Shown here: positions 14,522 through 63,945 of the stretch, piece after piece
Numbering within the stretch: the first letter of the stretch is position 1
How the letters are laid out: the number at the start of each line of letters is the position of its first letter
IMG/VR virus record: IMGVR_UViG_3300016476_001289
Strand: one strand, 5' to 3'
DNA: 64,000 nt
Origin: a virus
Notes under the pieces: generated by a model
Told to the model about the DNA's origin: nothing
Database searches by the model: none
Seen by the model: only the letters and a program-made list of their open reading frames with translations
Position numbers and translations under genes: made by a program

Positions 14522-14605
14522 AATGACATATCTTTCTTTTGTTTGTGTTTCTTTAGCAAGAAATCTAAATAGACTTCTACCGAGCCAACCCTATAAAAAC
14601 CCCCA

Positions 14606-15427
14606 TTAACTAGCTTTCCTAGTCTTTTTCACCTTAACTTCACTCACCTTAACTTCTTCAACCTTAGCAACAGGATTAAAATCTTTTCTCTCAGTTTCAT
14701 CACCTGCCACAACTTCCTCTAACTTAGCAACAGGATTAAATGCTTTTCTTGATACCTTCTCAATCGTCTTAGGTTCTCTTATAGGAATAAAACGATGACG
14801 GCTTAAAATCCCTGCTATCTTGCTCCCCTTAACAGCTATCACTTCTTCATCTTGTTTTAATCTATCACTAGCTGACTTAAAAGCAAAATTAGTAAAGTCA
14901 TTTTTTACTGCTAGTAAAACAATCTCTTTATCATCTTTAAATGAGTGTAGATATTTTAAAACACTACCTTCTTTTTTCACCAACTCAATCGCTATTGATC
15001 TATCTTCTTTAAAAGATTCATGTGCATAGAATATAGCACAGGGATCTTTTTCTATTGCCTTCTTTACGATAGCTTTATCTTGTTTAAGCTTATCATCAAT
15101 AAAGCTTATCAACCACCCATTACAAGTATCTAATAGCTCTAAAATGAATTTCTTATCTGATCTTAATTTAGAATCGGCATGAGATAAAGCATAACAATTT
15201 TGTTTAACTGCTAAGGTTATCACTTCTTTATCTGATTTTAATTTAGGGTTCGCATACTCTAAATTATTGCCATCCTTAGCTACTTGCTTTAAGACAACTT
15301 CTTTATCTGACCAATCAATTTTAGATTGAGTCTTTTCAATCTCTTGCTCAATCTCTTGTTCTTCTACTTGCTCAATAGCAACTTGCTCAACAACTTCTAC
15401 TTGCTCTACTGCTTTTTTCCTTGCCAT
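14606..15427 (-). CDS. DUF4116-repeat protein
   Basis: DKEVVLKQVAKDGNNLEYANPKLKSDKEV-type repeats; SD agagga favours the MARKK start. Confidence 0.7.
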   Translation of the reverse strand: MARKKAVEQVEVVEQVAIEQVEEQEIEQEIEKTQSKIDWSDKEVVLKQVAKDGNNLEYANPKLKSDKEVITLAVKQNCYALSHADSKLRSDKKFILELLDTCNGWLISFIDDKLKQDKAIVKKAIEKDPCAIFYAHESFKEDRSIAIELVKKEGSVLKYLHSFKDDKEIVLLAVKNDFTNFAFKSASDRLKQDEEVIAVKGSKIAGILSRHRFIPIREPKTIEKVSRKAFNPVAKLEEVVAGDETERKDFNPVAKVEEVKVSEVKVKKTRKAS

Positions 15428-15467
15428 TTTGTCCTCTTTCTTGTGTTGTGTTAGTATGTTTGTATCA

Positions 15468-15496
15468 TGTATAACTAATCTATGACTTATTGTCAA
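15468..15496 (-). promoter_or_regulatory. sigma70-like promoter
   Basis: TTGACA-17 nt-TATACA on the minus strand; same downstream leader (tacaaacatactaac) as the 22789 promoter. Confidence 0.55.
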
Positions 15497-15511
15497 GTAG
15501 TTTTTGTAGGA

Positions 15512-15859
15512 TTACGCATTTATTAAAGTCTTATTAGGTGAAGGGTAGTTATCATAATACTCTTTCAATATTAGATACTTCTCTTCATCTATCTGAAGTT
15601 TCTCTAATGCCATCTTCTCTTTTTTCTTTTGGTAATATATTTTTGCTTTCTCATTCCTAGAATCTCTATTCTTTTCTCTATATATCTTACCAGTTTCTAG
15701 TATCTTCTCTTTATTCGCTTCATAATAAATCCTAGCCTTTTCAGCTAAAACTTCTTTATTCTCTTTCCTCCTCTTCCTTTGAGCTTCTGCTCTTTTTTCC
15801 TTATTCTTTTCTGCATACTCTTTCATATATGTAGCTTTGTCTTTGTTCTTATATCCCAT
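15512..15859 (-). CDS. basic low-complexity helical-repeat protein
   Basis: YYEANKEKILE-type repeats. Confidence 0.5.
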   Translation of the reverse strand: MGYKNKDKATYMKEYAEKNKEKRAEAQRKRRKENKEVLAEKARIYYEANKEKILETGKIYREKNRDSRNEKAKIYYQKKKEKMALEKLQIDEEKYLILKEYYDNYPSPNKTLINA

Positions 15860-16142
15860 TAAGTATTTCTCCTTTTTTGTGTCTTTTGTAAGAGTTTTTA
15901 AATAAACCTATTTGTTTATCCGTCAATAGCTCACCTTCAGATACGAGTAAGCTTAAGTTAAATGCTAATTCTCTGACTTTCTCATCACTAGCATTCTCAT
16001 ATAACTCTTTAGCTTGAGATAAAAAATCAAAGTCTTTAAAACAATGTCTTTCTAAATTTCTCATAGGATATTCAAAATGAGTTAAGACAGAATAATAATC
16101 ACATTCTAATTTTTGATACGCTATCATTTTATCACCACCCAT
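15849..16142 (-). CDS. hypothetical protein (LTDKQ motif)
   Basis: SLLVSEGELLTDKQ resembles the motif in 33557, 61939 and 43925. Confidence 0.5.
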   Translation of the reverse strand: MGGDKMIAYQKLECDYYSVLTHFEYPMRNLERHCFKDFDFLSQAKELYENASDEKVRELAFNLSLLVSEGELLTDKQIGLFKNSYKRHKKGEILNGI

Positions 16143-16453
16143 ATATTACTAGGATCAATAGCTTTCCAGTATCTTTGCTTAGGATGTTCTTTATCTGATT
16201 TTTGTCCTATAAACTTCCACCCATTGCTCACCCTACTTCCTAAGGGCGTTCTAGTGAATTGCTCCACTATTTCCCATTCATAATAACTTGTCCCCAAGTC
16301 ATATATAATCTTATTGTCATCACCTGAAAATTGATCTAATCTATATTCAGTCGATAACATACCATAGACAAATTTACATACTTCAATTTGTAAATCGAAG
16401 TTATCAAAATTCTCATATACATTTAATTGTTTTGCTATATCGTTTAATCTCAT
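16124..16453 (-). CDS. hypothetical protein
   Basis: 109-aa ORF in a packed operon. Confidence 0.55.
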   Translation of the reverse strand: MRLNDIAKQLNVYENFDNFDLQIEVCKFVYGMLSTEYRLDQFSGDDNKIIYDLGTSYYEWEIVEQFTRTPLGSRVSNGWKFIGQKSDKEHPKQRYWKAIDPSNIWVVIK

Positions 16454-16458
16454 AATGC

Positions 16459-17760: not shown

Positions 17761-18483
17761 TTAAATGCCTTTCTTTGCTAGGAATTTGAAAATTGTTTTA
17801 TGAAGTTTCTTTGCTAGTTTTTCTTTTTCTTTGTTATTTAAAGAAACTGACATACCATTAGCATTACGAATTTCAATCTCAATAACTTCGGTTTCTTCAC
17901 CTTCATCAAGGGGTTCGCAATCATCATCACTAATTAGCAAAGTTTTTAGTGCAGGGTCTATTTTTGCTAGTTCTAATTCATGTGAATAGCTAAGAACATT
18001 TGCATAATTGATAGCTTCACTAAATTGTCTTTCAATTAAATGAATTAGATCTTTGCTATAACCATTAAGAGAAAGTGCGAGTATCCAATTAGATAAAGTG
18101 CCTTCAAGGTAATTGTTAAAAATCATTGTTTCATGTTGAAGTTTTTCTAATGAATCACTTTCTAAAACTCTAAAAATGTGGTGCTTTGCAAATTCACTTT
18201 GTTCAATCGCAAGTTCAGGTGATAGATCTAAAAGACATTGAGCTTTAAAATCTAACCTACTAGCAATAGTAGTAAAATCAAGGGTACGATTTAAATCTAC
18301 AAAAATTTGTGGATGTTCTACACTTGCGATAAGATCAAGTAGTCGTGTTGTCATAGGTTTTTCTTCCTCTTTTTGTGAAAGGTCGATTGTGTTTTGAGCC
18401 ATTTTTGTTGTGAGAATTACCATAGGTTTTTCCTCTTGTGTTGTAGGTTGTGTGTTGTTTTGTGTATAGATCGAGATAATCAT
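17761..18483 (-). CDS. hypothetical protein with three in-frame SD+ATG starts
   Basis: First gene of the left arm of the 18.5-kb element; ATGs at 18483, 18423 and 18354. Confidence 0.6.
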   Translation of the reverse strand: MIISIYTQNNTQPTTQEEKPMVILTTKMAQNTIDLSQKEEEKPMTTRLLDLIASVEHPQIFVDLNRTLDFTTIASRLDFKAQCLLDLSPELAIEQSEFAKHHIFRVLESDSLEKLQHETMIFNNYLEGTLSNWILALSLNGYSKDLIHLIERQFSEAINYANVLSYSHELELAKIDPALKTLLISDDDCEPLDEGEETEVIEIEIRNANGMSVSLNNKEKEKLAKKLHKTIFKFLAKKGI

Positions 18484-18973
18484 AGGTGTTAATCCTTTGT
18501 GTAGTGTTTTGATTCTCTATGCTTAACCTATGTTTTGAATGGTTTTTTTCAACGATTTTAAAAAGTTTAGATATTTTGATAACTTAGAAGTGCGCCCTGC
18601 GGCGCATAATATGTAGAAATCTAGGCTCGGATATTATGTAGAAATCTACTTATATATATATACATATATAGGGGGTCCGCATCTCACCCATTAGTGTATT
18701 CTTAATAGGTAAATATAGACAAATATAAGCAATTTTAATTTTAGAAAGAGGGTAGATGCGGACCCATCACCAGACCCCTATATAGCCCTAGATTTCTACA
18801 TTTTATCTGAGAGTAGATTTCTACATTTTATCGGGTGGGGCGAAAAAATCAAATATTTGAAATATCTAAGCTTTTTTTTTGCGTTGAAAAAACAAGCTTA
18901 AAACATAGGAAAAGCATGAGAATGAAAAATGAAAATTCTCTTAACATAGCAATTTAAATGAAAGGATTATGCT
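18484..18973. promoter_or_regulatory. divergent M1/M2/IHF-box element
   Basis: M1 at 18611 and 18636; M2 at about 18673 and inverted at about 18755; inverted M1 at 18789 and 18814; AAAACATA boxes at 18529 (-) and 18900 (+). Confidence 0.85.
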
Positions 18974-22154: not shown

Positions 22155-22238
22155 TTCTTCTTTATTTATAGTGTGTTGTTTTTTTGTTTAGGGGTGTAGA
22201 AATCTAGGTATCATTATAAAATAGGGGGTAGTAGGAAA

Positions 22239-25834: not shown

Positions 25835-25890
25835 TATATTTATAGATAACTCTCTTATAGATTTATAAAACTTATGAGAGGGATAACATT

Positions 25891-29484: not shown

Positions 29485-29488
29485 GTAA

Positions 29489-31424: not shown

Positions 31425-31506
31425 GGTCTAGACTTCTATCTTTTAAGACCTTAGATTTCTTGCTTTTGGATTAAAAAAAAATCTCAGTAGCGAGTTTTTA
31501 AACTCA
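31425..31506 (-). terminator. cassette end: hairpin, T-run and degenerate M1 pair
   Basis: gagtttttaaactc hairpin, A8 on the + strand, tagatttcttgc and ctagacttcta. Confidence 0.55.
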
Positions 31507-31698
31507 CTACTCAGCTCTATATTCATCGAACCATCTACCTACACGATTTGTGTATCTAATTCGCTCTGCACTTGTACAAGTGCTACTACTTGTTTCAGGG
31601 TTCGCACAATGTGCTTGGGCTTGTTCAAGAGTCAATCCTCTTTGGATAACTCTATTTGAGTTAGTTCTTTGAAAGTGTCTTACAATTTCGTATCTCAT
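31507..31698 (-). CDS. small hypothetical protein
   Basis: 63 aa, GLTLEQAQAHC motif. Confidence 0.6.
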   Translation of the reverse strand: MRYEIVRHFQRTNSNRVIQRGLTLEQAQAHCANPETSSSTCTSAERIRYTNRVGRWFDEYRAE

Positions 31699-32360: not shown

Positions 32361-32696
32361 AGCTTAATCCTTTCATTGATTTATTGTTTTGCTATTTCCT
32401 ATACTCATTATATGTTTTAGGTGGAGTTTTTAAATCAGGTGAAAATGTTTATATATTTCAATAACTTACACGATTCGCCGCGCCACATAATATGTAGAAA
32501 TCTAAGGTGATATAAAAGGCTATTATGTAGAAATCTTGCATAGGGTCCGCATACTTTCACCCCACTTCCACCCCCACCCCTAGATTTCTACATATTAAAA
32601 GGCTAGATTTCTTCACAGGGGGTCCGCATACTTTTAGATTTCTTTCTCCTACCACAAAAAAAAACAACTCGATAAAGAGAAGCTTCTCTTTATCGA
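32361..32696. promoter_or_regulatory. M1/M2 junction: leftward promoter arm plus terminator of the upstream cassette
   Basis: AAAACATA (-) at 32411, IHF-like box at 32456, M1 at 32492 and 32525, M2 at 32543 and 32620, inverted M1 at 32581, hairpin cgataaagagaagcttctctttatcg. Confidence 0.8.
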
Positions 32697-33059
32697 TTAG
32701 GTTCTTTCAATAAATTTAGCAGTGAAAATCTCATTTTCAATTTTAACTTTATAATAATTTGAATATTGAAAATCATGATAATACTTTTTGCCGTCAATTA
32801 CTTCCCAGGTTTTATCGATAAAAAGTATAAATTCAACATTGATTAAATGGGTATTAAGATAAACTTCAGCATTTAAATCATAGTCTTTTATTCTAAAAGT
32901 AATATCTTGACATTTTTCAATCTCTTCATGAAATTTATTTTCTAATGAATGATGAATCTCTTGATAAACACTTTCAATCATAAAATCATCATGATTTTTT
33001 TCAATCATTCTCTTTATAAAGCCTCGCATACCTATTTCGTATCTTAACTCTCTAATCAT
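32697..33059 (-). CDS. hypothetical cassette protein
   Basis: SD aaagga favours ATG 33059 (MIRELR) over the ORF-track start at 33077. Confidence 0.6.
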   Translation of the reverse strand: MIRELRYEIGMRGFIKRMIEKNHDDFMIESVYQEIHHSLENKFHEEIEKCQDITFRIKDYDLNAEVYLNTHLINVEFILFIDKTWEVIDGKKYYHDFQYSNYYKVKIENEIFTAKFIERT

Positions 33060-33077
33060 AGCTTTAAATCCTTTCAT

Positions 33078-33556
33078 TGATTTATTTGTTAATTGCTATA
33101 CTCATTATATGTTTTAGGTGAGATTTTTAATATAGGTGAAAATGTTTATATATATCAATAACTTACACGATTCCCACATCCTGATAATATGTAGAAATCT
33201 AAAAGGATAAAATGTAGAAATCTAGGTGAAACCCCTATAATGTCCGCATACTTATCACCCCACCCTAGATTTCTACATATAAAGCCATAAGGATATTTTA
33301 TTCACCCAAATACATGGTCCGCATACTTTCACCATACTCGCCCTAGATTTCTACATTTTAGGGTATTTCTAATATTCACCTAGACCCCTTAGATTTCTAC
33401 ATATTATCAGTATATGTAAATCTCGTAAGTGATTAAAATGTATAGCTTTTTTTACCTACATTAAAATTATCACCTAAAACATATATTGAGTATAACTTAA
33501 CAACATAGATGATTGTTAAGTCTTTTAACATAGCTTAACATAAAGGATATAATGCT
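33078..33556. promoter_or_regulatory. divergent M1/M2/IHF-box element
   Basis: Perfect WATCAANNNNTTR at 33153-33165; M1 at 33189 and 33212; M2 at 33242 and 33316; inverted M1 at 33266, 33344 and 33390. Confidence 0.85.
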
Positions 33557-34057
33557 ATGACAAGTTTCAATAAAACTCAATTTCTTTCTCAATTTGCTTC
33601 TTTTACTCCTAAAAATGAATGGGAAGAAAAATTTAGTAAATCTCTTCACCGACAAGTAGAAAAGTATGGTAAAGAGTTATCTGAAAAACAAATTGAATGT
33701 TGGACAAAATTAATTGCTCCTAAGACTCAAGTTAAGGTAGAATCTTTATCTGAAACTGCTTTAAGTGAATTAACAAAAGCAAATAATGTTCTTGTTTATG
33801 CTACTGAAGTTAAAGATATTGAATTTGCTAAAAGCTTAAAATCTCAAATTTTAGAAGGTAAAGAACTTAGCTCAAAACAAGCTTATTTCTTAGGATTAAT
33901 TGAGAAAAGAGTAAGCCCAAAGGTTGAAGCTCCTAAGGTTGAAACTGCTAAAGCTCCTAAGACTGCTAAAGCTAAGGTTGAAGCTCCTAAGGTTGAAGCT
34001 CCTAAGACTGCTAAAACTGCTAAAGCTAAAAAAGAAGTAAAAACATTACCATTCTAA
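33557..34057 (+). CDS. cassette protein with two LS.KQ motifs and a Lys/Ala/Pro-rich tail; paralog of 61939..62394
   Basis: Near-identical N-terminal about 125 aa; APKVE/TAK repeats. Confidence 0.75.
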   Translation: MTSFNKTQFLSQFASFTPKNEWEEKFSKSLHRQVEKYGKELSEKQIECWTKLIAPKTQVKVESLSETALSELTKANNVLVYATEVKDIEFAKSLKSQILEGKELSSKQAYFLGLIEKRVSPKVEAPKVETAKAPKTAKAKVEAPKVEAPKTAKTAKAKKEVKTLPF

Positions 34058-34066: not shown

Positions 34067-34226
34067 CTTAACTAGCTTATTGACTTAATTGTCTTTAAGC
34101 TAGTTAAGGTTTTTTTTTGTTTAGGAAGCAAGAAGTCTATCCTACCCCCTAGCAGATAAAGAAATCTAGCCTTTAATATGTAGAAATCTAGGGTGGTAAA
34201 TAAATTGATATTTTTGTATGCGACCC
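34067..34226 (+). terminator. cassette end: terminator, M1 pair and inverted M2
   Basis: 13-bp stem at 34067-34108, T-run, gaaatctag twice, gtatgcgacccc. Confidence 0.75.
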
Positions 34227-43912: not shown

Positions 43913-43924
43913 TTAAATCCTTTC

Positions 43925-46938: not shown

Positions 46939-47399
46939 ATATACTCCTGTATAGAGTTAAGGGTTTAACAAAAAAGAGATTTTTCATTCTCATGCTTAAC
47001 CTATGTTTTGAGTCAATTTTTTCAACGATTTTAAAATGTTTAGATATTTCAAACACTTACGAATTTCGCCTGCGGCGGATAATATGTAGAAATCTAGCCT
47101 AAGATAAAATGTAGAAATCTACCTATATATAGGTCTAAAAAGGGGGGTCCGCATCTACCCTAATACTGAATATATACTTAGTTATATATTAGTCTATTAT
47201 ATATAGAATTAGGGTGTATGCGGACCCTATATAATCAATATAACAATACTAGATTTCTACATAATATCTGAGCCTAGATTTCTACATTTTATGCGCCGCA
47301 GAGCGCACTGCTAAGTTATCAAAATTTCTTAACTTTTTTAAATCGTTGAAAAAAAAGACTCAAAATATAGCGTGTATATAAGCTCAAAAAGAAAGGTTT
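46939..47399. promoter_or_regulatory. divergent M1/M2/IHF-box element (closest relative of the 18.5-kb element)
   Basis: M1 at 47084 and 47109; M2 at about 47145 and inverted at 47216; inverted M1 at 47250 and 47275; right arm is a close reverse complement of 18525-18648. Confidence 0.85.
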
Positions 47400-55472: not shown

Positions 55473-55520
55473 ATCTCCTTAAGTCTATCATACCATAATA
55501 ACAGATAAACCCTAGTGTCA

Positions 55521-55592
55521 ATATTTCTACATTTTAAGGGCTAGATTTCTTGCTCCCTGCACAAAAAAAACCCAACCTAGCAAAAAGCTAGG
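55521..55592 (-). terminator. cassette end: terminator and M1 variants
   Basis: cctagcaaaaagctagg hairpin, A8, ctagatttcttgc, atttctaca. Confidence 0.7.
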
Positions 55593-55892
55593 TTATTTAT
55601 CATCAGCAAAGTTATGTGTAGTAGATATTTGTAAATATCTAGGATGATAGAACCAAGCTAAATCTCTATTCATAGGATTATCATAAATCTGAAAGAAATA
55701 ATGAAATTTCTCACCTTGATATTCAATCTCAAAGCTACCTTTATTAAGGTTGAAATTTTGACATGATAGCTTGTATCCAATCAAAAGAGTGGTTCTGTCT
55801 TGTGGTAATTCTAAAAGGATAATATCCTTTTTTAATTTTGCTTTTTGGGTTTTATTCATTGAGGGGCAGTTGATTTTAATACTCATAGTCAT
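55593..55892 (-). CDS. hypothetical cassette protein
   Basis: SD aaagga; single gene between a promoter arm and a terminator. Confidence 0.6.
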   Translation of the reverse strand: MTMSIKINCPSMNKTQKAKLKKDIILLELPQDRTTLLIGYKLSCQNFNLNKGSFEIEYQGEKFHYFFQIYDNPMNRDLAWFYHPRYLQISTTHNFADDK

Positions 55893-56372
55893 AGCTTTTT
55901 CCTTTCATTTATTGTTAATTGCTATACTTAATATATGTTTTAGATATTGATTTTAGTATAGGTGAAAAAGCTTAGGTATTTCAATCACTTATGAGATTAA
56001 AAAACTAGGATAAAATGTAGAAATCTAAGCACTATTAGGCTAATATGTAGAAATCTAGGTGAAAGGGTAAAAAGGGTCCGCATACAAAATTTTAGGTTTG
56101 TTTTGGCAATTTTGGCTTCACCTAGATTTCTACATATAACCTTATCCTGAGTTGCTAGGAAAAAGGTCAAAAATAGGTAAAAAGGGTCCGCATACTTTTT
56201 TTGGCTTCACCTAGATTTCTACATATTATCCACACCCTAGATTTCTACATTTTATCCTAATGGGTGAATTCCCTAAGTATCTAAAACCCTTAAATTTTCT
56301 TATTTTAGTGAAAAAAACCCTTAAAAACATAGAATAAGTATAGCAAATAACAATAAATGAAAGGATTTAGCT
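55893..56372. promoter_or_regulatory. divergent M1/M2/IHF-box element
   Basis: M1 at 56015 and 56045; M2 at 56074 and 56184; inverted M1 at 56123, 56212 and 56238. Confidence 0.85.
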
Positions 56373-56621
56373 ATGAATTTTCAAGACTTGATTAAAGAAC
56401 TTGCGTTATTAGGATATTTTGAACTTGATTTATCTCTTAAAGATAATATGATTCACTTCAATAATAATGATGAATTATTTATCAATGATGAATTATCTCT
56501 ATATGAAGTTAATCATGAAGGTAGAAGATTTGAATTATGTATAGTCGAATCTGTGGATGATGTGATTTTCTATATTGAAGAAAATCAATTTACCCCTGAT
56601 TCTTCCGACTGCCCAAATTAA
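56373..56621 (+). CDS. acidic cassette protein, paralog of 63589..63831
   Basis: MNF..L.KEL.LLG.FE...LC..ESVDDV..Y.E. Confidence 0.7.
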   Translation: MNFQDLIKELALLGYFELDLSLKDNMIHFNNNDELFINDELSLYEVNHEGRRFELCIVESVDDVIFYIEENQFTPDSSDCPN

Positions 56622-56881
56622 ATCCTAGCTTTTTGCTAGGTTGGGTTTTTTTTTGTGATTGAAGCAAGAAATCTAGTCTTTATTTTGTAGAAATCTAGGT
56701 GAAGTGGGTGATGTTAAGAAAAAGTATGCGGACCCCTATGGTATTCCACCCTAGATTTCTACAAAATATCCAAATCCCCAAATCCCATAAGTGATTGAAA
56801 TATCTAAGCTTTTTCACCTATGTTAAAACCATCACTTAAAACATATATTAAGTATAGCAATAACAAAACAAAGGATAAAAA
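56622..56881. promoter_or_regulatory. terminator, M1/M2 junction and rightward promoter arm
   Basis: cctagctttttgctagg plus T-run; M1 at 56686; inverted M2 at 56724; inverted M1 at 56751; IHF-like box at 56788; AAAACATA at 56838. Confidence 0.85.
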
Positions 56882-57424
56882 ATGATTGACTTCACTAAAT
56901 ACAATTTTTCAAAATTCTATGATCTTGTAGTAGGAAAAAATAAAGCTAAGAGGGTAGAAAAGAAAAAGAAATTCATTGAGACTTATGGTGGTAATGAAGA
57001 AGTTATACGAACCCTTATTCAAAAAGTAGGTATCTATGAAGTATACAAGTATATTGCGCCTCATAATCCTATATTCAAAGATTATGAGCTTGTGAAAAAG
57101 TGTTTAAAGAAAGAGGTACTCTTTTTCAAGAAAATTCCAGTGAAATATAGAACTGAAGAACTTGTGTTGATATTCATGAAGTATGAGATGAAATATGACA
57201 TGAATTACAAGGGAATTGAAAAATCAATCAATAGTAAATTTCAATATCTCCTTGAGTCTAAATGGTGGAAAAAATATGTTGAAGAAAATATCAAGCTTCA
57301 ACAAAAAGAAAAAGATATGAAAATTTGGTGGCGAGAGAATAGTAAAAAGTATTCATCGGAAGATAGTGCAATTACAGCACTTGAAAGAAAATTTGGGAAG
57401 ATGAAAGACTACTTTGAGATTTAG
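56882..57424 (+). CDS. basic hypothetical cassette protein
   Basis: 180 aa, SD aaagga. Confidence 0.6.
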   Translation: MIDFTKYNFSKFYDLVVGKNKAKRVEKKKKFIETYGGNEEVIRTLIQKVGIYEVYKYIAPHNPIFKDYELVKKCLKKEVLFFKKIPVKYRTEELVLIFMKYEMKYDMNYKGIEKSINSKFQYLLESKWWKKYVEENIKLQQKEKDMKIWWRENSKKYSSEDSAITALERKFGKMKDYFEI

Positions 57425-57431: not shown

Positions 57432-57535
57432 GTTGCCTTTACGGCAACAAAGATTTTTTTTGTGTAGGAAGCAAGAAGTCTATGGGTGGGCTAGGCAAGT
57501 AGAAATCTAGCCCTTATTTTGTAGAAATCTAGGGT
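57432..57535 (+). terminator. cassette end: terminator and M1 pair
   Basis: gttgcctttacggcaac hairpin, T-run, gtagaaatctag at 57499 and 57521. Confidence 0.7.
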
Positions 57536-57765
57536 GAATATCCTATATAGACATTATTTGTATTTAACCAAGTTGGTTTAGGTAGTGTTCTAGCTGTGTA
57601 TAAAGCAACTGATTGTCTTATGTTAAGAGGACTGATATAGAAACCTAATCCTTTAATTTCTTTTTTAGGGTGGGCAGGTGAAAAAGTAGATGAGAATAAA
57701 CCTATATTTTGAACTGAGTGAAAAATATTATTCCCATGACAATAAAAGAAAGGTGGGTTATTCAT
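57529..57765 (-). CDS. family B small protein
   Basis: RQSVALYTARTLPKPTWLNTNNVYIG. Confidence 0.7.
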   Translation of the reverse strand: MNNPPFFYCHGNNIFHSVQNIGLFSSTFSPAHPKKEIKGLGFYISPLNIRQSVALYTARTLPKPTWLNTNNVYIGYSP

Positions 57766-57766
57766 A

Positions 57767-57997
57767 TTATCTTCCTATATAGACATTATCTGTGTTTTGC
57801 CAATTTGATTTAACTAAAGACCTTACACTATATAAGGCTATTGATCTTCTCATAGCTATGTTATCCATAGGTATATAATACCCCATACCTTTTATTTCAC
57901 CTCTACTTAAATGACCTGCTGAGGTAGATGAGAAGAAATTGGTGAACTGTATAGCTTGAAAGATATTATTAGCATTACAATTAAAAAAGAAGATCAT
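57767..57997 (-). CDS. family B small protein
   Basis: RRSIALYSVRSLVKSNWQNTDNVYIG. Confidence 0.7.
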   Translation of the reverse strand: MIFFFNCNANNIFQAIQFTNFFSSTSAGHLSRGEIKGMGYYIPMDNIAMRRSIALYSVRSLVKSNWQNTDNVYIGR

Positions 57998-58248
57998 TTA
58001 TCTTCTCTTCCTATATAGACATCATTAGAATTTTGCCAATTAGCTTTAGGTAAAGACCTGATACAAAACATAGCAACTGACCTTCTAAGGTTTTCTATAT
58101 TGTTCTCATATATAAGGACACCTTTACCTTTTATTCTATTATCTTTATGTTGCATGGTATGGGTAGAGAAGATACTTGTATATTGTTTAGCATGAAATAT
58201 ATCATTATTCTCATAATAGACAGAGAAGATAGCTTTATCATAGAACAT
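57994..58248 (-). CDS. family B small protein
   Basis: RRSVAMFCIRSLPKANWQNSNDVYIG. Confidence 0.7.
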   Translation of the reverse strand: MFYDKAIFSVYYENNDIFHAKQYTSIFSTHTMQHKDNRIKGKGVLIYENNIENLRRSVAMFCIRSLPKANWQNSNDVYIGREDK

Positions 58249-58253
58249 AGGTT

Positions 58254-58499
58254 TTATTCTCTTCCTATATAGACATCATTAGAGTTTATCCAATTAGCTT
58301 TAGGTAAAGACCTAACACTAAATAAAACTATTGACCGTCTTATATTTTCTAAAGGTTCTTTATACATAAAGATGCCACCTAAATAAGTTTGATATTTAGG
58401 TTTAGAAGTATAATTTAAAGATAAAAAGCAAGTTTCTTGTTGTGCTTTAAAGATATTATTATTAGAACAGAAAAAGAAAGCTATCGGTTGAATATCCAT
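58254..58499 (-). CDS. family B small protein
   Basis: RRSIVLFSVRSLPKANWINSNDVYIG. Confidence 0.7.
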   Translation of the reverse strand: MDIQPIAFFFCSNNNIFKAQQETCFLSLNYTSKPKYQTYLGGIFMYKEPLENIRRSIVLFSVRSLPKANWINSNDVYIGRE

Positions 58500-58501
58500 A
58501 G

Positions 58502-58741
58502 TTAATTCTCTCTTCCTAAGAAGACATTATTAGTATTCATCCAAGTATGAATAGGTAAAGACCTGATACTATAAACCACTATACTCTTTCTTAAAATATC
58601 TTGATCCACAAAAATAGCACTACTTTTTGATCTATTATTTGTTCTTAAAGAGTATTCAGAAGATAAAACACAAGTTTTTACTTTCCCATGAAAAAGATCA
58701 TTAGAATCACAAAGTAAAAAAAAGAAGGTGTAGTTATTCAT
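58502..58741 (-). CDS. family B small protein
   Basis: RKSIVVYSIRSLPIHTWMNTNNVFLG. Confidence 0.7.
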   Translation of the reverse strand: MNNYTFFFLLCDSNDLFHGKVKTCVLSSEYSLRTNNRSKSSAIFVDQDILRKSIVVYSIRSLPIHTWMNTNNVFLGREN

Positions 58742-58744
58742 TTT

Positions 58745-58951
58745 CTATTCCTTATAAAAGACATCACAATTATTTACCCATGTGTGTTTAGGTAATGACC
58801 TAACACTAAATAATACTATACTCCGTCTCATAGATTCTTTACTTAAGGGTATCCCATGATTTATGGAACTATTACTTGATAGAAAACAACTATGTCTTAT
58901 AAAGACACTATGGTAGATGTCATTCCCTATAAAGAAAAAGTATCCTATCAT
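58745..58951 (-). CDS. family B small protein
   Basis: RRSIVLFSVRSLPKHTWVNNCDVF. Confidence 0.7.
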   Translation of the reverse strand: MIGYFFFIGNDIYHSVFIRHSCFLSSNSSINHGIPLSKESMRRSIVLFSVRSLPKHTWVNNCDVFYKE

Positions 58952-60480
58952 TCTTTTAAAAACCCATGTTCATAAACACCAGGTCTTAACTTATCTCCTA
59001 GTGCCTTATGTAAATCCTTTAACACCTTAAAGTCGTCCTTATACTCAATTTCCCAAAACCCCTTTAACTGATACCACCCACAATCCCAACAAGTTAATTG
59101 TAATTCAGGATTTGCCAAAGCATAGGCTTCTCTTGTATCTAAGGACTTAACCCATAAGTTAGTAGCATGGACTAATAAATCCTCAGCTTCTTTACTAAGT
59201 GTAAGTTCCCCAATTAAGGTCGCCACATAAGACTCTTCATAATGTTTTTCAAAATCTTCATACAATAAAGGACACTTCTCTTTTAATAAGCCTTTAATGC
59301 CATATCTCTCTAACCAAAAGAAATGATTTTTAATTTGCCAAATTTCGCCACCCCAAGAGACATCTCTCATACTTGTACAATTATTCTTTGTCTCAAAGAT
59401 ACTATATATATGACAATCATCTACCCACTGTTCATAACCTTCTTTTAATTCAGAAGGTTGTATATAAGTCCCATTCTCATCTAACCACTTTTGTGTAAAA
59501 GGAATTATAGGGTGATCTATATATGGGATTTCTTTAGGTGGGGCTTTCTTAATAGGTCCTGTCTTTTCTCTTTCTTTAATCTTTAAGCCACTTGTCATAA
59601 TAGGGTATTCATAAACCTCCATGCCTTCAATAGGTTCTCTCACCCATTCACTAGCTGACTTATGGTTATCGCAGTTATAAATTTGTTTCCACCCTACATG
59701 ACTAGCATCTAGTTCTCTAATAGAGAGAATAGGTTCTTCAGTATTTTCACCTTCAGACCATATAGTAAAGCCTACACCCCATTCAGAAGAAACACCTGAG
59801 AAAGCACTAGCATTAAAGAAGAATCCTTGTTGGAATTTAAAATCTCTATAATACCATTTACGGAATTTTTGAGCTGTCTCTTGGATCATGAATTTAATAG
59901 GTGAGAATAGACAGATAGAAACTTTAGTATAACCGAAGTTCCTAGCTTGTCTTACGGCTTCAAAGATAAATTGAAAGTATAAATTAGAGCGACAAGCACC
60001 TACCATAGACATAAGGTTCTTCACCTTAGTCTCAGACACACCTTCTTTATTTTCTTCATCGTCAGCTAAAGTACCTGCTGCGGCATAAGGAGGGTTCATA
60101 AAGAATACAAGTCTCTTATCTGTATTCTTAGATAAGAGATTAAAGGCATATTCCGATAAAGGATTCTCATAAGAGAATAGGTCTAGGTCAGGGTTAAGGA
60201 AGTCATATTTAAAAGCATTGGTATAACCTTGTTTAACGAGTAGGTCTACTTCAGGTTGTTCGAGTGTAGAGATAATGAGATTTTTAAAATCATATTCTCT
60301 TGTTAAGTTACCTGACCCTGCACAACAATCCCATACGACACATTCATCTTTCCAGTTTTCACCTAAGACTTTGGTGGTGAGTTTATGTGCTTCATCTACC
60401 CATAATTTAGGGGTGAAGAAAGCACCTTGTCTAGTTCTAATTTCATTTACTATGGTTTGATCATAATTTTCAATCTTCAT
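58948..60480 (-). CDS. N6-adenine DNA methyltransferase (gamma-class motif order)
   Basis: GAFFTP (X), VWDCCAGSGNL (I), FMNPPY (IV). Confidence 0.8.
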   Translation of the reverse strand: MKIENYDQTIVNEIRTRQGAFFTPKLWVDEAHKLTTKVLGENWKDECVVWDCCAGSGNLTREYDFKNLIISTLEQPEVDLLVKQGYTNAFKYDFLNPDLDLFSYENPLSEYAFNLLSKNTDKRLVFFMNPPYAAAGTLADDEENKEGVSETKVKNLMSMVGACRSNLYFQFIFEAVRQARNFGYTKVSICLFSPIKFMIQETAQKFRKWYYRDFKFQQGFFFNASAFSGVSSEWGVGFTIWSEGENTEEPILSIRELDASHVGWKQIYNCDNHKSASEWVREPIEGMEVYEYPIMTSGLKIKEREKTGPIKKAPPKEIPYIDHPIIPFTQKWLDENGTYIQPSELKEGYEQWVDDCHIYSIFETKNNCTSMRDVSWGGEIWQIKNHFFWLERYGIKGLLKEKCPLLYEDFEKHYEESYVATLIGELTLSKEAEDLLVHATNLWVKSLDTREAYALANPELQLTCWDCGWYQLKGFWEIEYKDDFKVLKDLHKALGDKLRPGVYEHGFLKE

Positions 60481-60735: not shown

Positions 60736-60936
60736 ATGTACGATTCTTTATCTGAGAATAGATTATATTTCCATGATCTCACCGAAGATACTTATGTTCA
60801 AGTATCAAGAGATTTTTTTGATGTTGTCCGTCTTCACTATATACAAAAAGAAGATATTGTTAAAACCCAAACATATAAGTATGAAGAGTTCTCTGAAGAT
60901 GTATTCAATAAATTTATCTCAGAGATTTGTAGCTAA
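60736..60936 (+). CDS. hypothetical protein
   Basis: 66 aa, SD ggag. Confidence 0.45.
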   Translation: MYDSLSENRLYFHDLTEDTYVQVSRDFFDVVRLHYIQKEDIVKTQTYKYEEFSEDVFNKFISEICS

Positions 60937-61353
60937 ACATATTTGTATATCTATATCATCTAACTTATCTAAGTGTTTTATCATTAAACTTTTTACATCT
61001 TCCCAATTTAAACCACCACGACCACACCCTAATTTAGGAAATGCTATTGAGTCTATTCCTAATCCCTTATAGGTCTTTACAAAATGTTCTAATCCCTTAT
61101 CTATATAAGATAAACTAGATCCTGATTTCCAATGTCTCTTAGTAGGGAAGTTATATACTTCACCATATAGATAAGGTTCACCTATTTTAAACTCTTCTCT
61201 CATACACCTATGATAATAATCTTTATACATATCAGGGTATCTAGTTTTAAATTCTAAGGCTATACCTATTCCCATTACACCTACAATATTAACAGCATTA
61301 ACTAAAACTTTAGCATCTGTTTCAAATACATTTTTATCAGTAAAGAAAAGCAT
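60919..61353 (-). CDS. DarG/Poa1p-like macrodomain protein
   Basis: LVNAVNIVGVMGIGIALEFK, NFPTKRHWK, SIAFPKLGCGRGGLNW. Confidence 0.85.
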   Translation of the reverse strand: MLFFTDKNVFETDAKVLVNAVNIVGVMGIGIALEFKTRYPDMYKDYYHRCMREEFKIGEPYLYGEVYNFPTKRHWKSGSSLSYIDKGLEHFVKTYKGLGIDSIAFPKLGCGRGGLNWEDVKSLMIKHLDKLDDIDIQICLATNL

Positions 61354-61408
61354 AGATTTCTACTTTCGAGAATAAAAAAAACATCACATCAGCTACAAGA
61401 GATTTATC

Positions 61409-61738
61409 TTATAGGATAAATCCCTTGCAACCGATGATATTACCACTAGCATCTCTTAAAGTATCAGGAGCAAGTAAATCTTTACGACCTACTTTCTTAC
61501 CTGCTTCAAGGACGATTAAGCTAACAATATAAAACACATTATCTTGGGGCGCAGGTAAATCAACTATCTCACCTAAGATACTCATTTTTAATGGTATTAA
61601 GATACCATCTAAATCAAGAGTAGGTAAATCGAGATTTGTTTGATTCACACGAGGCAAGATACCACTCTTTTCAAAAGTAGTGGTAGTTCCATTATAGATC
61701 AGGTGAACATCATGGGGTGTTGCATTAATGATTTGCAT
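61409..61738 (-). CDS. N-x-T-P-H family protein (possible ring-nuclease-like)
   Basis: IINATPH...LPAP...YIVS...DLLAPD..RD..G.IIGC; SD aaagga before ATG 61738. Confidence 0.55.
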   Translation of the reverse strand: MQIINATPHDVHLIYNGTTTTFEKSGILPRVNQTNLDLPTLDLDGILIPLKMSILGEIVDLPAPQDNVFYIVSLIVLEAGKKVGRKDLLAPDTLRDASGNIIGCKGFIL

Positions 61739-61751
61739 TTTAAGTCCTTTC

Positions 61752-61946
61752 TTATTTGTTGTTTTTGTTTTTGAGTGAAGCAATTACTTTGTCATCATAA
61801 GCATTAGCAAAGCTATGAATAGATTTAGCTTTAATGCCATAATCTAAAAGATCAAAATCTTTGAAAGATAAAGATCTTTTTGTATTAGTGGTTTTAGGTG
61901 TTCTAAAAATTTTTCCTTTTGGGAAGGTGTTGTAAGTCTTAGACAT
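61752..61946 (-). CDS. small hypothetical protein
   Basis: 64 aa, SD aaagga. Confidence 0.5.
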   Translation of the reverse strand: MSKTYNTFPKGKIFRTPKTTNTKRSLSFKDFDLLDYGIKAKSIHSFANAYDDKVIASLKNKNNK

Positions 61947-62394
61947 TTTTTTCCTTTGTGGTTTTGGTTTTAGGTGTCTTAGGTGCTTTAGCAGTCTTGG
62001 GTGCTTCTTCTACTTTGGGTGCTTCAACTTTAGGTGATACTCTTTTCTCAATCAATCCTAAGAAATAAGCTTGTTTTGAGCTAAGTTCTTTACCTTCTAA
62101 AATTTGAGATTTGAGTGATTTAGCAAATTCAATATCTTTGACTTCAGTAGCATACACTAAAACATTATTAGCCTTAGTTAATAATCCTAATGAATCATCA
62201 CTTAAAGTCTCTACCTTGACTTGAGTCTTAGGTGATACAAGCTTATTCCAGCATTGTAATTGCTTTTCGGATAGCTCTTTACCTTGCTTTTCTACTTGTT
62301 TATGTAGACTCTTGCTAAATTTCTCTTCCCATTCATTAGATGGTTTAAAAGAAGAGAATTGATTGAGAAATTGTGTTTTATTGAAACTTGTCAT
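61939..62394 (-). CDS. paralog of 33557..34057
   Basis: MTSFNKTQFL...identical stretch NNVLVYATEVKDIEFAKSLKSQILEGKELSSKQAYFLGLIEKRVSPKVEAPKVE. Confidence 0.75.
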   Translation of the reverse strand: MTSFNKTQFLNQFSSFKPSNEWEEKFSKSLHKQVEKQGKELSEKQLQCWNKLVSPKTQVKVETLSDDSLGLLTKANNVLVYATEVKDIEFAKSLKSQILEGKELSSKQAYFLGLIEKRVSPKVEAPKVEEAPKTAKAPKTPKTKTTKEKNV

Positions 62395-62949
62395 AGCGTT
62401 TTATCCTTTATGTTATGCTATGTTAAAAGACTTATCAATCATCTATGTTGATAAGTTTAAGAGTTTATCTTTATCTCTTATACTACTTGTATGTTTTAGG
62501 TGATAATTTTAACACAGGTGAAAAAGCTTATATATATCAATAGGTTGTAGAATATGCTCACTTGGATATTATGTAGAAATCTAGGAATTTTAAAAACTAG
62601 GCTATTATGTAGAAATCTAGGTGAAAATAGATAGGGGGTTCGCATACTTTTTTCACCCACCCTAGATTTCTACATATTAATGTGGCATCACCTTAATATG
62701 GGGTCCGCATACTTTCACCCAAATTCTTTTAGATTTCTACATTTTAGGGTATTATCTCGTCACCCTAGATTTCTACATATTATCAAGATACCTAAATCGC
62801 CTAAGTTATTGATATATATAAGCTTTTTCACTTATGTTAAAAATATTACCTAAAACATATATTGAGTATAAGAGATAAAGATAAGCTCTTATGCTTAACA
62901 ACATTGATGATTGTTAAGCTCAACATAGCAAAACAAAGGATTTAAAGCT
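62395..62949. promoter_or_regulatory. divergent M1/M2/IHF-box element
   Basis: Perfect IHF consensus at 62535-62547 and 62802-62814 (rc); M1 at 62571 and 62607; M2 at about 62637 and 62701; inverted M1 at 62663, 62730 and 62766. Confidence 0.85.
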
Positions 62950-63246
62950 ATGAAATTTAGAAAAGATAATTTTGATAATACCTCTTGCGATTTACCTAGA
63001 ATCGAAACACCTAGCAATGAAACAGAGCAAGTCTTAAAAAGCGTTGATTTTGGTGTTTTTAGAACCGACAAAGAAACTCACTACCTTCATAATGGTTTAG
63101 GTTGTCAAGTGATTCATTGTCGATATGGGTATTTAGTAAGAGATTTTATTCAATATACCGGGCAAGTTAAGCGCCCTGCTCTTCATACTATTGAGAAGCT
63201 TCTTGAGGCACTTGATGATGCTAGAACTTGGAAAAATTGGAAGTAA
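62950..63246 (+). CDS. hypothetical cassette protein
   Basis: 98 aa, SD aaagga. Confidence 0.6.
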   Translation: MKFRKDNFDNTSCDLPRIETPSNETEQVLKSVDFGVFRTDKETHYLHNGLGCQVIHCRYGYLVRDFIQYTGQVKRPALHTIEKLLEALDDARTWKNWK

Positions 63247-63274
63247 TAAGCTTCTTATCGTGGATTGAGTTTTG

Positions 63275-63588
63275 AGATAACTAATTGACTTAATTGTCTT
63301 TTAGTTATCTTGTCTTTTTTTTGTGGTAGGAGAAAGAAATCTAGCCTTTATTTTGTAGAAATCTAGGGTGGGGTGAAAAACCCAAATTTTTGTATGCGGA
63401 CCCCCCCTATGGTATTTCACCCTAGATTTCTACAAAATAAAGGCTAGATTTCTACATAATAGCCCAATACTCAAATCCTGTAAGTAATTGAAATATCTAA
63501 GATTTTTCACCTGATTTAAAAACTTCACCTAAAACATATATTAAGTATAGGAAATAGCAAATAACAAAAATCATGAAAGGATTTAGCT
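63275..63588. promoter_or_regulatory. terminator, perfect 36-bp inverted repeat junction and rightward promoter arm
   Basis: IR at 63335-63370 / 63418-63453; inverted M2 in the spacer; IHF-like box at 63481; AAAACATA at 63531. Confidence 0.85.
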
Positions 63589-63831
63589 ATGAATTTTGAT
63601 AGTTTAGTTAAAGAACTTACCTTGCTCGGTCTCTTTGAGGATGAATTATATATCCAAGATAATGTAATTCACTTTAAGAATCACTATTTAGAGATTCATT
63701 CAGACCTTTCACTATTCCAAGTTGAAGTTTATGAATACCTAAATGAGCTTAACCCAAGTGGTAAGCTTCAGTTATGCACTATTGAAAGTGTTGATGATGT
63801 TCTTTACTATATGGAAGATGATGATGAATAA
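63589..63831 (+). CDS. acidic cassette protein, paralog of 56373..56621
   Basis: Shared N- and C-terminal motifs and the same terminator hairpin. Confidence 0.7.
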   Translation: MNFDSLVKELTLLGLFEDELYIQDNVIHFKNHYLEIHSDLSLFQVEVYEYLNELNPSGKLQLCTIESVDDVLYYMEDDDE

Positions 63832-63837
63832 AGTATG

Positions 63838-63945
63838 CGACCTAGCTTTTAGCTAGGTTGTGTTTTTTTTGTTTAGGAAGCAAGAAGTCTATTACACCCC
63901 CTAGCAGATAAAGAAATCTAGCCTCTATTATGTAGAAATCTAAGG
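63838..63945 (+). terminator. cassette end: terminator and M1 pair
   Basis: cctagcttttagctagg plus T-run; downstream 70 bp nearly identical to 34110-34190. Confidence 0.75.

Follow-up and report, generated by a model that had tools for sequence, protein, structure and literature searches.

Oriented M1 and M2 repeats at the borders of shuffled gene cassettes in a 64-kb viral DNA window

Cassettes, repeats and junctions

The window, by which we mean the whole 64,000-nucleotide stretch of viral DNA analysed here (IMG/VR record IMGVR_UViG_3300016476_001289), contains seven single-gene cassettes of 80-180 aa, and repeats of two motifs, M1 and M2, border these and other units in five islands (Table 1). 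The islands and their coordinates had been described in an earlier note made from the letters alone and are right, including the degenerate terminator-side copies at 31427-31463, 34157, 55520, 57498, and 63909. Shine-Dalgarno (SD) sites are used by 68 of 96 genes. A Pfam scan of two cassette payloads gave no match, a scan of the window for tRNA and tmRNA found none, and an Rfam search of the window at gathering thresholds returned no match to RNA families.

The M1 core GTAGAAATCT has 37 exact matches in the window as compared with 0.46 expected (shuffles, maximum 3), and GGKTCCGCATAC, standing for M2, has 12 matches at ≤1 mismatch as compared with 0.07 expected. Counting also the hub variant GGTCCGCATC and copies that match less well, M2 is found 15 times in the islands and once more between genes at 44637, which bears out the counts of about 37 and about 16 reported before. 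The motifs also lie almost only between genes, as had been claimed: every M1 copy is intergenic except 61354-61363, which overlaps a start codon, and the "in-gene" flags on repeats reflect spurious 40-57 aa ORFs spanning them and nothing else.

M2 (gGGGTCCGCATAc) lies between M1 copies that face each other. In 8 of 8 mixed M1 clusters of the window, each + copy is left of each - copy, a pattern with a probability of about 10^-5.8 by chance, and M1 copies converge on the junction in 43 of 43 distinct clusters in the related contigs considered below; the oriented grammar is thus without exception. Facing M1 copies are a variable distance of 45 to 160 bp apart, and their complementarity goes ≤1 nt past the core in 37 of 51 junctions. 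The palindrome around M2 in hub 2 reaches about 20 nt. Minimal junctions measure 63-79 bp, with inverted M1 copies at both ends.

Table 1. Coordinates of junctions, terminator-side modules, a predicted promoter, and cassette payloads in the window (> and <, direction of a motif)
Feature	Coordinates	Strand	Layout or content	Neighbourhood
Hub 1	18613..18824	.	M1> M1> M2> / AT-rich centre / <M2 <M1 <M1	divergent operons, 17761-18483 (-) and 18974 onwards (+)
Hub 2	47086..47285	.	layout as hub 1	operons 45484-46938 (-) and 47400 onwards (+)
Head-to-tail junction, two minus-strand units	32494..32650	.	M1> M1> M2> <M1 <M1(degenerate) M2> <M1(degenerate)	terminator of 32697-33077 comes next
Head-to-head junction	33191..33400	.	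M1> M1> M2> <M1 M2> <M1 <M1	
Head-to-head junction	56017..56248	.	M1> M1> M2> <M1 M2> <M1 <M1	
Minimal head-to-tail junction	56665..56762	.	M1(degenerate)> M1> <M2 <M1	
Head-to-head junction	62573..62776	.	M1> M1> M2> <M1 M2> <M1 <M1	
Head-to-tail junction	63335..63455	.	perfect 36-bp inverted repeat, two M1 units per arm, M2' in spacer	
Terminator-side M1, degenerate	14570..14581	-	GTAGAAGTCTA	after 14606-15496
Single M1	22196..22205	+	directly behind T-run	follows 21417-22154; 33 nt ahead of start of co-oriented gene 22239-22805
Terminator-side M1 pair, degenerate	31427..31463	-		after minus-strand operon ending at 31507
Terminator-side module	34120..34226	+	T-run, AGAAGTCTA, AAGAAATCTA, ATGTAGAAATCTA, then degenerate M2'	opposite 3' end of convergent gene 34227-34799
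Terminator-side M1 pair, degenerate	55520..55552	-		cassette 55593-55892
Terminator-side module	57473..57531	+	AGAAGTCTA, aGTAGAAATCTA, tGTAGAAATCTA	opposite convergent operon 57529-60480
Single terminator-side M1	61354..61363	-	3' end overlaps ATG of macro-domain gene 60919-61353	after 61409-61783
Terminator-side module	63880..63941	+		after 63589-63831
Predicted sigma-70-like promoter	56795..56824	+	TTGAAA-18-TATGTT; -35 box 32 nt from closest M1	cassette 56882-57424
Payload	32697..33077	-	126-aa ORFan with own terminator	
Payload	33557..34057	+	166 aa, basic, paralog of 61939-62394	
Payload	55593..55892	-	99 aa	
Payload	56373..56621	+	82 aa, acidic	
Payload	56882..57424	+	180 aa	
Payload	62950..63246	+	98 aa	
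Payload	63589..63831	+	80 aa, acidic, paralog of 56373-56621	

A metagenome scan yielded 46 related loci with the motifs and grammar of the window, all on freshwater giant-phage contigs (up to 300 kb) and with 2-12 M1 and 1-5 M2 copies each; they were retrieved by their M1-M2 pattern, so that at least one exact M1-M2 pair per locus is built in and clades with an altered motif would escape it. Genes in these loci often have just 65-75% DNA identity to the window, and many of the loci have almost no other DNA-level likeness to it. No M1/M2 locus was found in the isolated phages, IMG/VR, or bacterial genomes searched, and three query genes compared with isolated phages at the DNA and protein levels gave no match apart from generic GroEL. 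Because the phage is without similarity to isolated phages, membership in the T4 group is not established.

The hub 1 layout is found again in most related loci, and over 51 distinct hub arms only M1, M2, TAAGT..TTGAAAT, and AAAACATA are ≥90% conserved. In the hubs, direct repeats with a spacing of 22-25 bp form two inverted sets flanking an AT-rich centre, with divergent operons outside, and one could read them as replication origins in which M1 copies are iterons for a phage initiator and the small junctions are decayed or duplicated origin pieces. A perfect DnaA-box-like TTATCCACA in one spacer (56222-56238) would be in keeping with this reading. We nevertheless consider it very unlikely because the window contains two hubs and about ten further junctions with identical sites, one whole subclade has C-runs instead of AT-rich sequence at the hub centre, and the fixed register of the sites with promoters and terminators, described next, indicates transcription.

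Register with promoters and terminators

Upstream of cassette genes, a -35-like TAAGTnnTTGAAAT is followed after 18 nt by TAnnnT, and a consensus scan predicts sigma-70-like promoters of the form TTGAAA-18-TATGTT, TTGAAA-18-TATACT, and TTGATA-18-TATGTT. Each cassette ends in a predicted hairpin and T-run, with 7 intrinsic terminators found at 55.4-57.7 kb as compared with 0.9 expected; promoter-like sites and terminators alike are where the earlier note put them. The distance from M1 to the -35 box is 32-33 nt in 40 of 45 contexts, and that from the T-run to M1 is 12 nt in 21 of 27. Hairpins vary among cassettes, and what is conserved is the T-run and the M1 module 12 nt behind it.

A position weight matrix built from 236 distinct contexts shows M1 to be an asymmetric motif of 19 nt (ATAAWATGTAGAAATCTAgg), with TAAWAT immediately 5' of the invariant core and AGG following it, although the positions 3' of the core are only ~50% G. 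In 423 kb, the core occurs as 292 exact copies and as 42 copies with one mismatch. Terminator-side copies, of which there are one to three per site, are without the TAAWAT part and degrade in a gradient, becoming increasingly canonical further from the terminator.

The asymmetry of M1, with TAAWAT ahead of the core and AGG behind, is what one might expect if a phage-specific RNA polymerase or sigma factor used M1 as its promoter. The ~19 conserved nt of M1 would then end at the initiating A/G, M1 would fire across the junction into the far unit, and the hubs would hold convergent middle/late promoters stacked upstream of sigma-70-like early ones. In hubs as well as head-to-tail junctions, one or more M1 sets are indeed aimed at a gene 190-360 nt downstream, and the single M1 at 22196 stands shortly before a co-oriented gene. 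However, the tail-to-tail copies (34157/34180, 57499/57521, and 31427-31463) aim into the 3' ends of convergent genes, and the promoter-side copies of head-to-tail junctions aim back into the upstream terminator; a large share of M1 copies would therefore yield antisense RNA only. The modest G content after the core and the degrading, TAAWAT-less terminator-side copies also speak against such a promoter, and the window showed no phage RNA polymerase, so we regard this reading as improbable.

Cassette exchange among relatives

In the related contigs, the self-contained promoter/SD/ORF/terminator cassettes proposed earlier are swapped, replaced, and re-joined within the junction framework; a given slot can hold different genes, and a given gene can sit in different slots. 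In L068, the 98-aa and 180-aa cassettes, which are 6 kb apart in the window, are joined, so that the 180-aa cassette comes after the 98-aa one and not after the 82-aa one. In L090, the 82-aa cassette adjoins a homolog of 61939-62394, and the unit at 56373..56621 is about 98% identical to its L090 counterpart solely from the AAAACATAG box to the T-run, with other neighbours there. The payload 32697..33077 is swapped in L106 for an unrelated 157-aa ORF and terminator, and the adjoining junction 32494..32650 is about 97% identical up to 32635, where the replacement begins. Homologs of 33557..34057 occupy the first position behind a junction in different surroundings (L094, L097, L061, and L072), and L094, L102, L077, and L079 keep the anchors (a 510-aa gene, a GroEL-like gene, and a 190-aa gene) while the cassettes between or beside them differ. 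Gain and loss of genes also occur within operons, far from M1 (L107, L072, and L094).

Nucleotide alignment allowed us to map four crossovers (L068, two cases in L090, and L106), and these fall in four different blocks, namely, ≤35 nt around an M1, in the promoter, at the leader box AAAACATA/GTATAGCAA, and at the T-run or terminator-side M1; of n=4 crossovers at this level, one thus coincides with an M1, and a degenerate M1 is where a second one ends. Since they hit different blocks of the framework, shuffling would be by homologous recombination between repeated regulatory modules. Cassette exchange, as far as the alignments go, fits homologous recombination like that of the promoter-early stem-loop (PeSL) modules of T4-type phages rather than one dedicated recombination site. 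M1 as the recombination or shuffling site, which the earlier note had proposed along with loop anchoring, is not supported, given the crossovers in four blocks and the turnover far from M1. The comparison of relatives that it called for does reveal swapping, replacement, and re-joining of cassettes but gives no sign of inversion, since collinearity runs through both hubs in two relatives with about 97% identity (hub 2 with L107 at 96.9% identity).

Dedicated site-specific recombination at M1/M2 (excision, insertion, or inversion in the manner of a shufflon or integron) has in its favour that inverted multi-copy sites bracket every unit with a second oriented motif between them, and that one crossover and one replacement end touch M1 copies. 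Candidates for the enzyme are three paralogs with a type IB topoisomerase fold, whose genes lie beside an island at 24149-31327: two of them, of 612 aa and 561 aa, match the catalytic core of Topoisom_I and are both conserved in relatives, and the 612-aa protein additionally matches Deinococcus TopIB. Type IB topoisomerases are not known to recombine cassettes in vivo. The remaining crossovers lie in the promoter, leader box, and T-run, the hubs are collinear in close relatives, site spacing varies, and neither Pfam nor PHROGs gave an integrase, invertase, or transposase among the proteins tested. The related metagenome contigs also have no terminal overlaps and none is circular, a result that says little on excised mini-circles of the PeSL kind, which bear a single cassette and a single chimeric module. 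On this evidence, we think site-specific recombination unlikely.

Inverted M1 copies bound the minimal junction much as terminal inverted repeats would, and the repeats could in principle be parts of a selfish MITE-like intergenic element with no function for the phage, or of a transposon with multi-site ends. We give the selfish-element reading the least credence of all, since the cores do not vary in relatives whose spacers and flanks have drifted apart freely, copy number, spacing, and inner content vary, complementarity of the inverted repeats ends at the core, and the sites keep a strict register with promoter and terminator. No transposase was detected (HTH matches only), and neither presence/absence polymorphism of whole junctions nor empty sites were seen in the relatives.

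A proposed shared framework and comparable known systems

The best explanation, in which we have moderate confidence, is a shared framework with shuffled cassettes in which M1 and M2 are read by a conserved sequence-specific factor; that confidence applies jointly to the window coming from an uncultured freshwater giant phage that uses sigma-70-like promoters, SD sites, and intrinsic terminators. Along the direction of the genes, the successive elements of the framework would be promoter-side M1 copies (1), TAAGTnnTTGAAAT 32-33 nt after M1 (2), a -10-like TAnnnT (3), the leader box AAAACATA..GTATAGCAA (4), the SD site (5), the payload ORF(s) (6), a hairpin and T-run (7), one to three M1 copies 12 nt on (8), M2 (9), and the M1 copies of the following unit pointing back (10). 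As comparison with relatives shows, payloads (SD, ORF, and terminator) and whole units are swapped, replaced, and re-joined via any available conserved block, and the M1/M2 repeats would provide extra homology for crossovers.

The likeliest reading of M1 and M2 themselves is that they are double-stranded sites, each recognised by a conserved sequence-specific factor, because the core is invariant in diverged relatives, the register is fixed, and there is no complementarity beyond the core. Such a factor would mark both ends of each transcription unit, with the promoter-proximal M1 centred near -72, the next near -97, and further copies right behind each terminator, and its role would most likely be regulation or insulation of early transcription; it might work by activation, shut-off, looping, or as a roadblock or topological barrier. 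A role tied purely to promoters, however, does not account for the terminator-side copies, where there is no promoter to regulate. Two multi-HTH proteins adjoin the islands (13553-14521 and 35118-36248); they retain just 53% and 33% identity in relatives in which GroEL retains 99% and 93%, which makes them a poor fit as the reader of a site that does not vary. The earlier interpretation is thus partly supported: the cassettes and their PeSL likeness stand, the protein sites at unit ends are supported by inference from the same three features, and M1 as the recombination site is not supported.

Integrons (attC/attI/IntI) likewise have arrays of single-gene units with imperfect inverted repeats between them and slot payloads that vary by genome. 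Integron cassettes, however, usually have no promoter, and a tyrosine recombinase acting on folded single-stranded attC moves them, whereas here each unit has its own predicted promoter and terminator, the proteins scanned showed no integrase domain, facing-repeat complementarity ends at the 10-12 nt core, and crossovers have no fixed point. Shufflons and other multiple-inversion systems, such as Rci/sfx of plasmid R64, also have short inverted repeats around DNA segments, but shufflon segments are parts of one coding region inverted at high frequency by a dedicated recombinase, whereas here the units are complete transcription units and no inversion is seen between close relatives. Some bacterial repressors act through multi-site looping operators; in the gal repressosome, for instance, a site for an architectural protein separates two operators, and the loop encloses the promoter. 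The window likewise has pairs of sites, about 50-160 bp apart and near promoters, that flank a third site of a different kind, but the promoters lie outside the M1-M2-M1 interval, and sites follow terminators too.

The comparison with PeSL cassettes, drawn in the earlier note, is apt. In T4-type phages, the repeated intergenic modules combine an early promoter, strong and sigma-70-like, with a terminator in the form of a stem-loop, and indels and replacements that end in the repeated modules are explained by homologous recombination (Arbiol et al. 2010, PMC2839356; Comeau et al. 2014, PMC4122927). Here too, a repeated intergenic motif comes with a predicted sigma-70-like early promoter, the stem-loop terminator belongs to the repeated module, the modules cluster in variable regions ahead of small ORFans, and indels and replacements end in modules (L068, L090 twice, and L106). 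What differs is an extra junction of 60-210 bp between promoter and terminator, made of tandem and inverted M1 sets with M2 between them, both motifs being invariant, strictly convergent in orientation, in fixed register to promoter and terminator, and conserved over a deeply diverged clade, beyond merely similar promoters. Gene turnover also takes place away from the modules. Judging from sequence comparison, this phage would keep small early genes in exchangeable promoter-gene-terminator units, as T4-type phages do. Cassette shuffling itself is already known, and the new element is the two-motif, oriented boundary at the unit borders.

Orientation and layout of the motifs

The M1 core GTAGAAATCT occurs 37 times in the window against 0.46 copies expected, and the M2 12-mer occurs 12 times at one mismatch or fewer against 0.07 expected, with 16 intergenic M2 copies when looser and hub variants are counted. 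All M1 copies are intergenic except one that overlaps a start codon, and other apparent in-gene copies are confined to spurious ORFs of 40–57 aa spanning the repeats, in agreement with the roughly 37 M1 and 16 M2 copies that the earlier note had placed almost entirely between genes. In all eight window clusters with M1 on both strands the plus copies lie left of the minus copies, and thus M1 always points into the junction, i.e., the motif-bearing DNA between units.

We sought relatives in metagenome contigs with the pattern M1-N(5-35)-M2, which returned 65 loci, 46 of them with 30–37% G+C, 2–12 M1 and 1–5 M2 copies, where the retrieval builds in at least one exact M1-M2 pair per related locus and leaves altered-motif clades invisible. 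Freshwater assemblies are the source of these 46 loci, some of which lie on contigs 180–300 kb long; JACCDT010258718, JACCDU011417809 and JACCDY010548567 are among the related contigs. In BLASTN the closest are 97% identical to the window, others as little as ~65%, and some have nothing alignable. Their commonest cluster pattern is the hub, a large head-to-head junction, and the convergent rule is kept in 43 of 43 distinct mixed clusters, so that the grammar first noticed in the window, with M1 pointing to the junction centre, extends to the relatives. The M1 consensus from 236 distinct contexts in these loci is (ccc)gATAAWATGTAGAAATCTAgg, an asymmetric 19-mer holding the short palindrome TAGA-AA-TCTA, and that of M2 (91 contexts) is gGGGTCCGCATAc. 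The M1 core occurs in 292 exact copies in 423 kb versus just 42 one-mismatch variants, and tandem copies are mostly spaced 22–25 bp apart.

Reading the islands in gene direction yields one common layout. First come one to three promoter-side M1 copies, followed after 32 nt by the −35-like TAAGTnnTTGAAAT, ~18 nt further on by TAnnnT, and then by a conserved leader box AAAACATA..GTATAGCAA, an AAAGGA-type Shine-Dalgarno (SD) site, the ORF or ORFs, and a hairpin with T-run. Twelve nucleotides past the T-run comes a copy resembling AGAAGTCTA or AAGAAATCTA, in many cases followed by another, and then a full ATGTAGAAATCTAgg; beyond these terminator-side copies lie M2 and the back-facing M1 copies that belong to the following unit. 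Where two promoter sides meet head-to-head, at 18.7 and 47.2 kb, they form the large hubs (M1 M1 M2 / centre / M2′ M1′ M1′). In 40 of 45 contexts 32–33 nt separate the end of the last promoter-side M1 from the −35-like box, and in 21 of 27 the first M1-like copy begins 12 nt past the T-run. Consensus scans place predicted promoter-like sites and terminators where this layout expects them, which upholds the earlier description of self-contained promoter–SD–ORF–terminator units. Only M2, two M1 copies, TAAGT..TTGAAAT and AAAACATA are at least 90% conserved across 51 distinct aligned hub arms. In a diverged subclade (L051, L055, L065, L088, L091, L099, L111) the hub centres between M2 and M2′ are not AT-rich and carry a conserved asymmetric C-run motif (aaaCCCCCCATTTTT .. 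aCCCCCC next to M2′), often with three M1 copies on one side.

Facing M1 copies lie 45–160 bp apart, and in 37 of 51 junctions their complementarity reaches no more than one base past the core; Rfam and tRNA scans of the window, the former a check proposed earlier, gave no match. Because complementarity ends at the core and the spacing varies, we rejected a hairpin or cruciform, and M1 and M2 appear to behave as individually read double-stranded sites.

Searches elsewhere returned chance matches: single ones for the M1 15-mer in IMG/VR, three for M1 plus M2 in IMG/VR, and 28 loci for M1 plus M2 in bacterial and archaeal genomes (27 with a single M1, L140 with two), which offer neither a host clue nor a cellular counterpart. 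M1-doublet matches in IMG/VR fell on unrelated contigs and were set aside; most of these contigs look like virophages or polinton-like elements, lack M2 and have TCTA-type promoter clusters of their own. Ten such contigs of 20–26 kb (L021, L026, L037, L038, L043, L046, L017, L036, L027, L035), whose capsid-like genes resemble those of virophages or polinton-like elements, carry intergenic GTAGAAATCTA clusters, with copies in either orientation and AGATAT..GTAGAAATCTAA as their context, but neither M2 nor other similarity to the window; these clusters are probably their own TCTA-type promoters.

The window itself has 31% G+C and dense, mostly small genes, 68 of 96 with SD sites, and its recognisable products comprise a SNF2-type helicase, GroEL, an ADP-ribosylglycohydrolase, a macro domain, type IB topoisomerase (TopIB)-fold proteins and a virion protein; we take it to belong to a giant phage with a bacterial host. 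Isolated phages gave no DNA match to the window; at the protein level neither the TopIB paralog nor the 1726-aa helicase had a match there, and those of GroEL were generic.

Features of the window and their coordinates
Feature	Coordinates	Strand	Observation
Hub (18.7 kb)	18613..18824		
Hub (47.2 kb)	47086..47285		
126-aa payload	32697-33077	-	
82-aa payload	56373-56621	+	Paralog in another island, 63589-63831; both acidic, 80-82 aa, ~45% identity
180-aa payload	56882-57424	+	
98-aa payload	62950-63246	+	
Paralogous payloads in different islands	33557-34057 / 61939-62394		Near-identical across ~130 N-terminal residues; lysine/alanine/proline-rich tails differ
190-aa gene	34227-34799		
161-aa gene	43427-43912		
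M1 copy overlapping start codon	61354-61363		
Macro-domain gene	60919-61353	-	Pfam E 7e-16; ATG is 3′ end of terminator-side M1 (GTAGAAATCTATG); directly behind upstream gene's terminator; promoter or strong SD not evident
Paralog array	57529-58951		Six small genes, 68-84 aa; copy number and sequence vary in every relative
Stop of conserved 68-aa gene	58738		Shared point of high-identity loss in four relatives (L068, L072, L094, L102)
Multi-HTH protein	13553-14521	-	HTH_23/HTH_28/sigma-70 region 4-like matches along chain; adjoins repeat island; 53% identity in relatives
Multi-HTH protein	35118-36248	+	Same matches; adjoins repeat island; 33% identity in relatives
1197-aa TopIB-fold paralog	25891-29484		1375 aa in close relative (L106:4446-8573), middle part unalignable; adjacent 612-aa paralog 96% identical in L106

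Cassette exchange and the position of crossovers

When the gene maps of the relatives were compared with the window by BLASTP, the cassettes proved to be modular, as the earlier note had supposed. In L068 the 98-aa cassette (98% identical) is the immediate neighbour upstream of the 180-aa cassette (91%); in the window the two lie at 62.9 and 56.9 kb. L090 carries a homolog of 61939-62394, then the 82-aa cassette (98%), then a gene not in the window. The 510-aa operon is retained in L094, where it and a GroEL-like gene are anchors with other cassettes between, and in L102, where other cassettes follow it, while L077 and L079 retain the 190-aa gene with different cassettes adjoining. In L106, ~97% identical to the window over the 32.5-kb junction, an unrelated 157-aa ORF with its terminator replaces the 126-aa payload.

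BLAST HSP ends cluster on M1, but this clustering is confounded by framework paralogy, and we therefore trusted only three-way alignments for breakpoints. The L068 crossover lies in a 35-nt interval around a promoter-side M1; the left join of L090 falls within the promoter, between leader and −35 region, and its 82-aa cassette is nearly identical from the AAAACATAG box to the T-run; and in L106 one end falls between M2 and the degenerate M1 on the terminator side, the other at GTATAGCAA in the leader box. Judged from these alignments, crossover ends appear spread over the conserved framework blocks, as homologous recombination between repeated regulatory modules would predict, the process described for the promoter-early stem-loop (PeSL) cassettes of T4-type phages (Arbiol et al. 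2010, PMC2839356; Comeau et al. 2014, PMC4122927).

Genes also turn over away from the motifs. In operons that have no M1, the 161-aa gene is absent from L107, L072 and L094 contain additional genes, and the paralog array at 57.5–58.7 kb varies. L107, 99% identical, lacks exactly the 161-aa gene (L107:815-824 vs window 43427-43917), and since the two alignment blocks overlap by ~10 nt, a microhomology-mediated indel within the operon, away from M1, is suggested. Synteny breaks compared with M1 presence in all relatives gave an odds ratio of 1.2 (P 0.84), in a crude Fisher test that is uninformative, since a majority of the "novel" genes may simply fall beyond the 64-kb window; it cautions that M1 junctions are not the sole places of change. 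The idea of shuffling at junctions survives in part, whereas M1 as the recombination site is not supported: the ends do fall in the framework, but they are scattered over its blocks, and turnover also occurs in operons without M1. Inversion, which the earlier note had proposed to look for, left no sign, as two relatives at ~97% identity are collinear with the window through both hubs, and no circular contigs were found among the related metagenome contigs.

A possible reader of M1 and M2

A conserved, sequence-specific reader is suggested by the invariance, asymmetry and tandem spacing of the motifs, by their fixed promoter and terminator register and by their presence at both ends of every unit. 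Of the promoter-side M1 copies, the nearest is centred near −72 and the next near −97, typical positions for upstream regulators; copies behind terminators would need a different role, e.g., roadblock, looping or domain boundary. Resemblances to known elements are all partial: those of M1 are to sigma-28 −10 boxes, Spo0A boxes, T7-type promoters and palindromes of the CRP/TyrR type, that of M2 is to a tRNA T-arm. That M1 is itself a promoter is less likely, because antisense transcription at tail-to-tail borders would follow. A dedicated recombination system of M1 and M2 is improbable and finds no specific support; TopIB-fold paralogs adjoining an island are real, and their link to the motifs is conjecture. 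The multi-HTH proteins diverge too rapidly to be convincing candidates for the binder, and the small conserved paralogs of the array have no recognisable domain.

We consider it rather improbable that the giant-phage clade has a dedicated boundary system made up of M1 and M2, in which a conserved phage factor would bind oriented M1 arrays at both ends of every early unit, with M2 at the apex, to give an insulated loop or topological domain, or in which the sites would let an enzyme, possibly one of the adjacent TopIB-fold trio, exchange cassettes precisely. If true, either version would amount to an insulator or a cassette machinery encoded by a phage and without described counterpart.

Comparison with known early-gene cassettes

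It is accepted that large phages can renew host-takeover genes by shuffling early-gene cassettes through repeated promoter–terminator modules, and the window locus is a clear case beyond cultured T4-type phages. Its unusual second layer consists of two short motifs that keep every letter and a strict orientation at each border between units, across phages whose genes are 65–75% identical in DNA. Motif invariance, orientation and fixed register together would imply that a conserved reader exists and that early phage transcription therefore involves a regulatory or architectural mechanism as yet undescribed; the 19-nt M1 and 13-nt M2 are direct probes for finding it. We found no account of the oriented M1/M2 boundary. 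The framework is functionally of the PeSL type, with the four sequence-testable PeSL features present here, whereas the oriented boundary, conserved in an uncultured freshwater giant-phage clade, is absent from the PeSL description.
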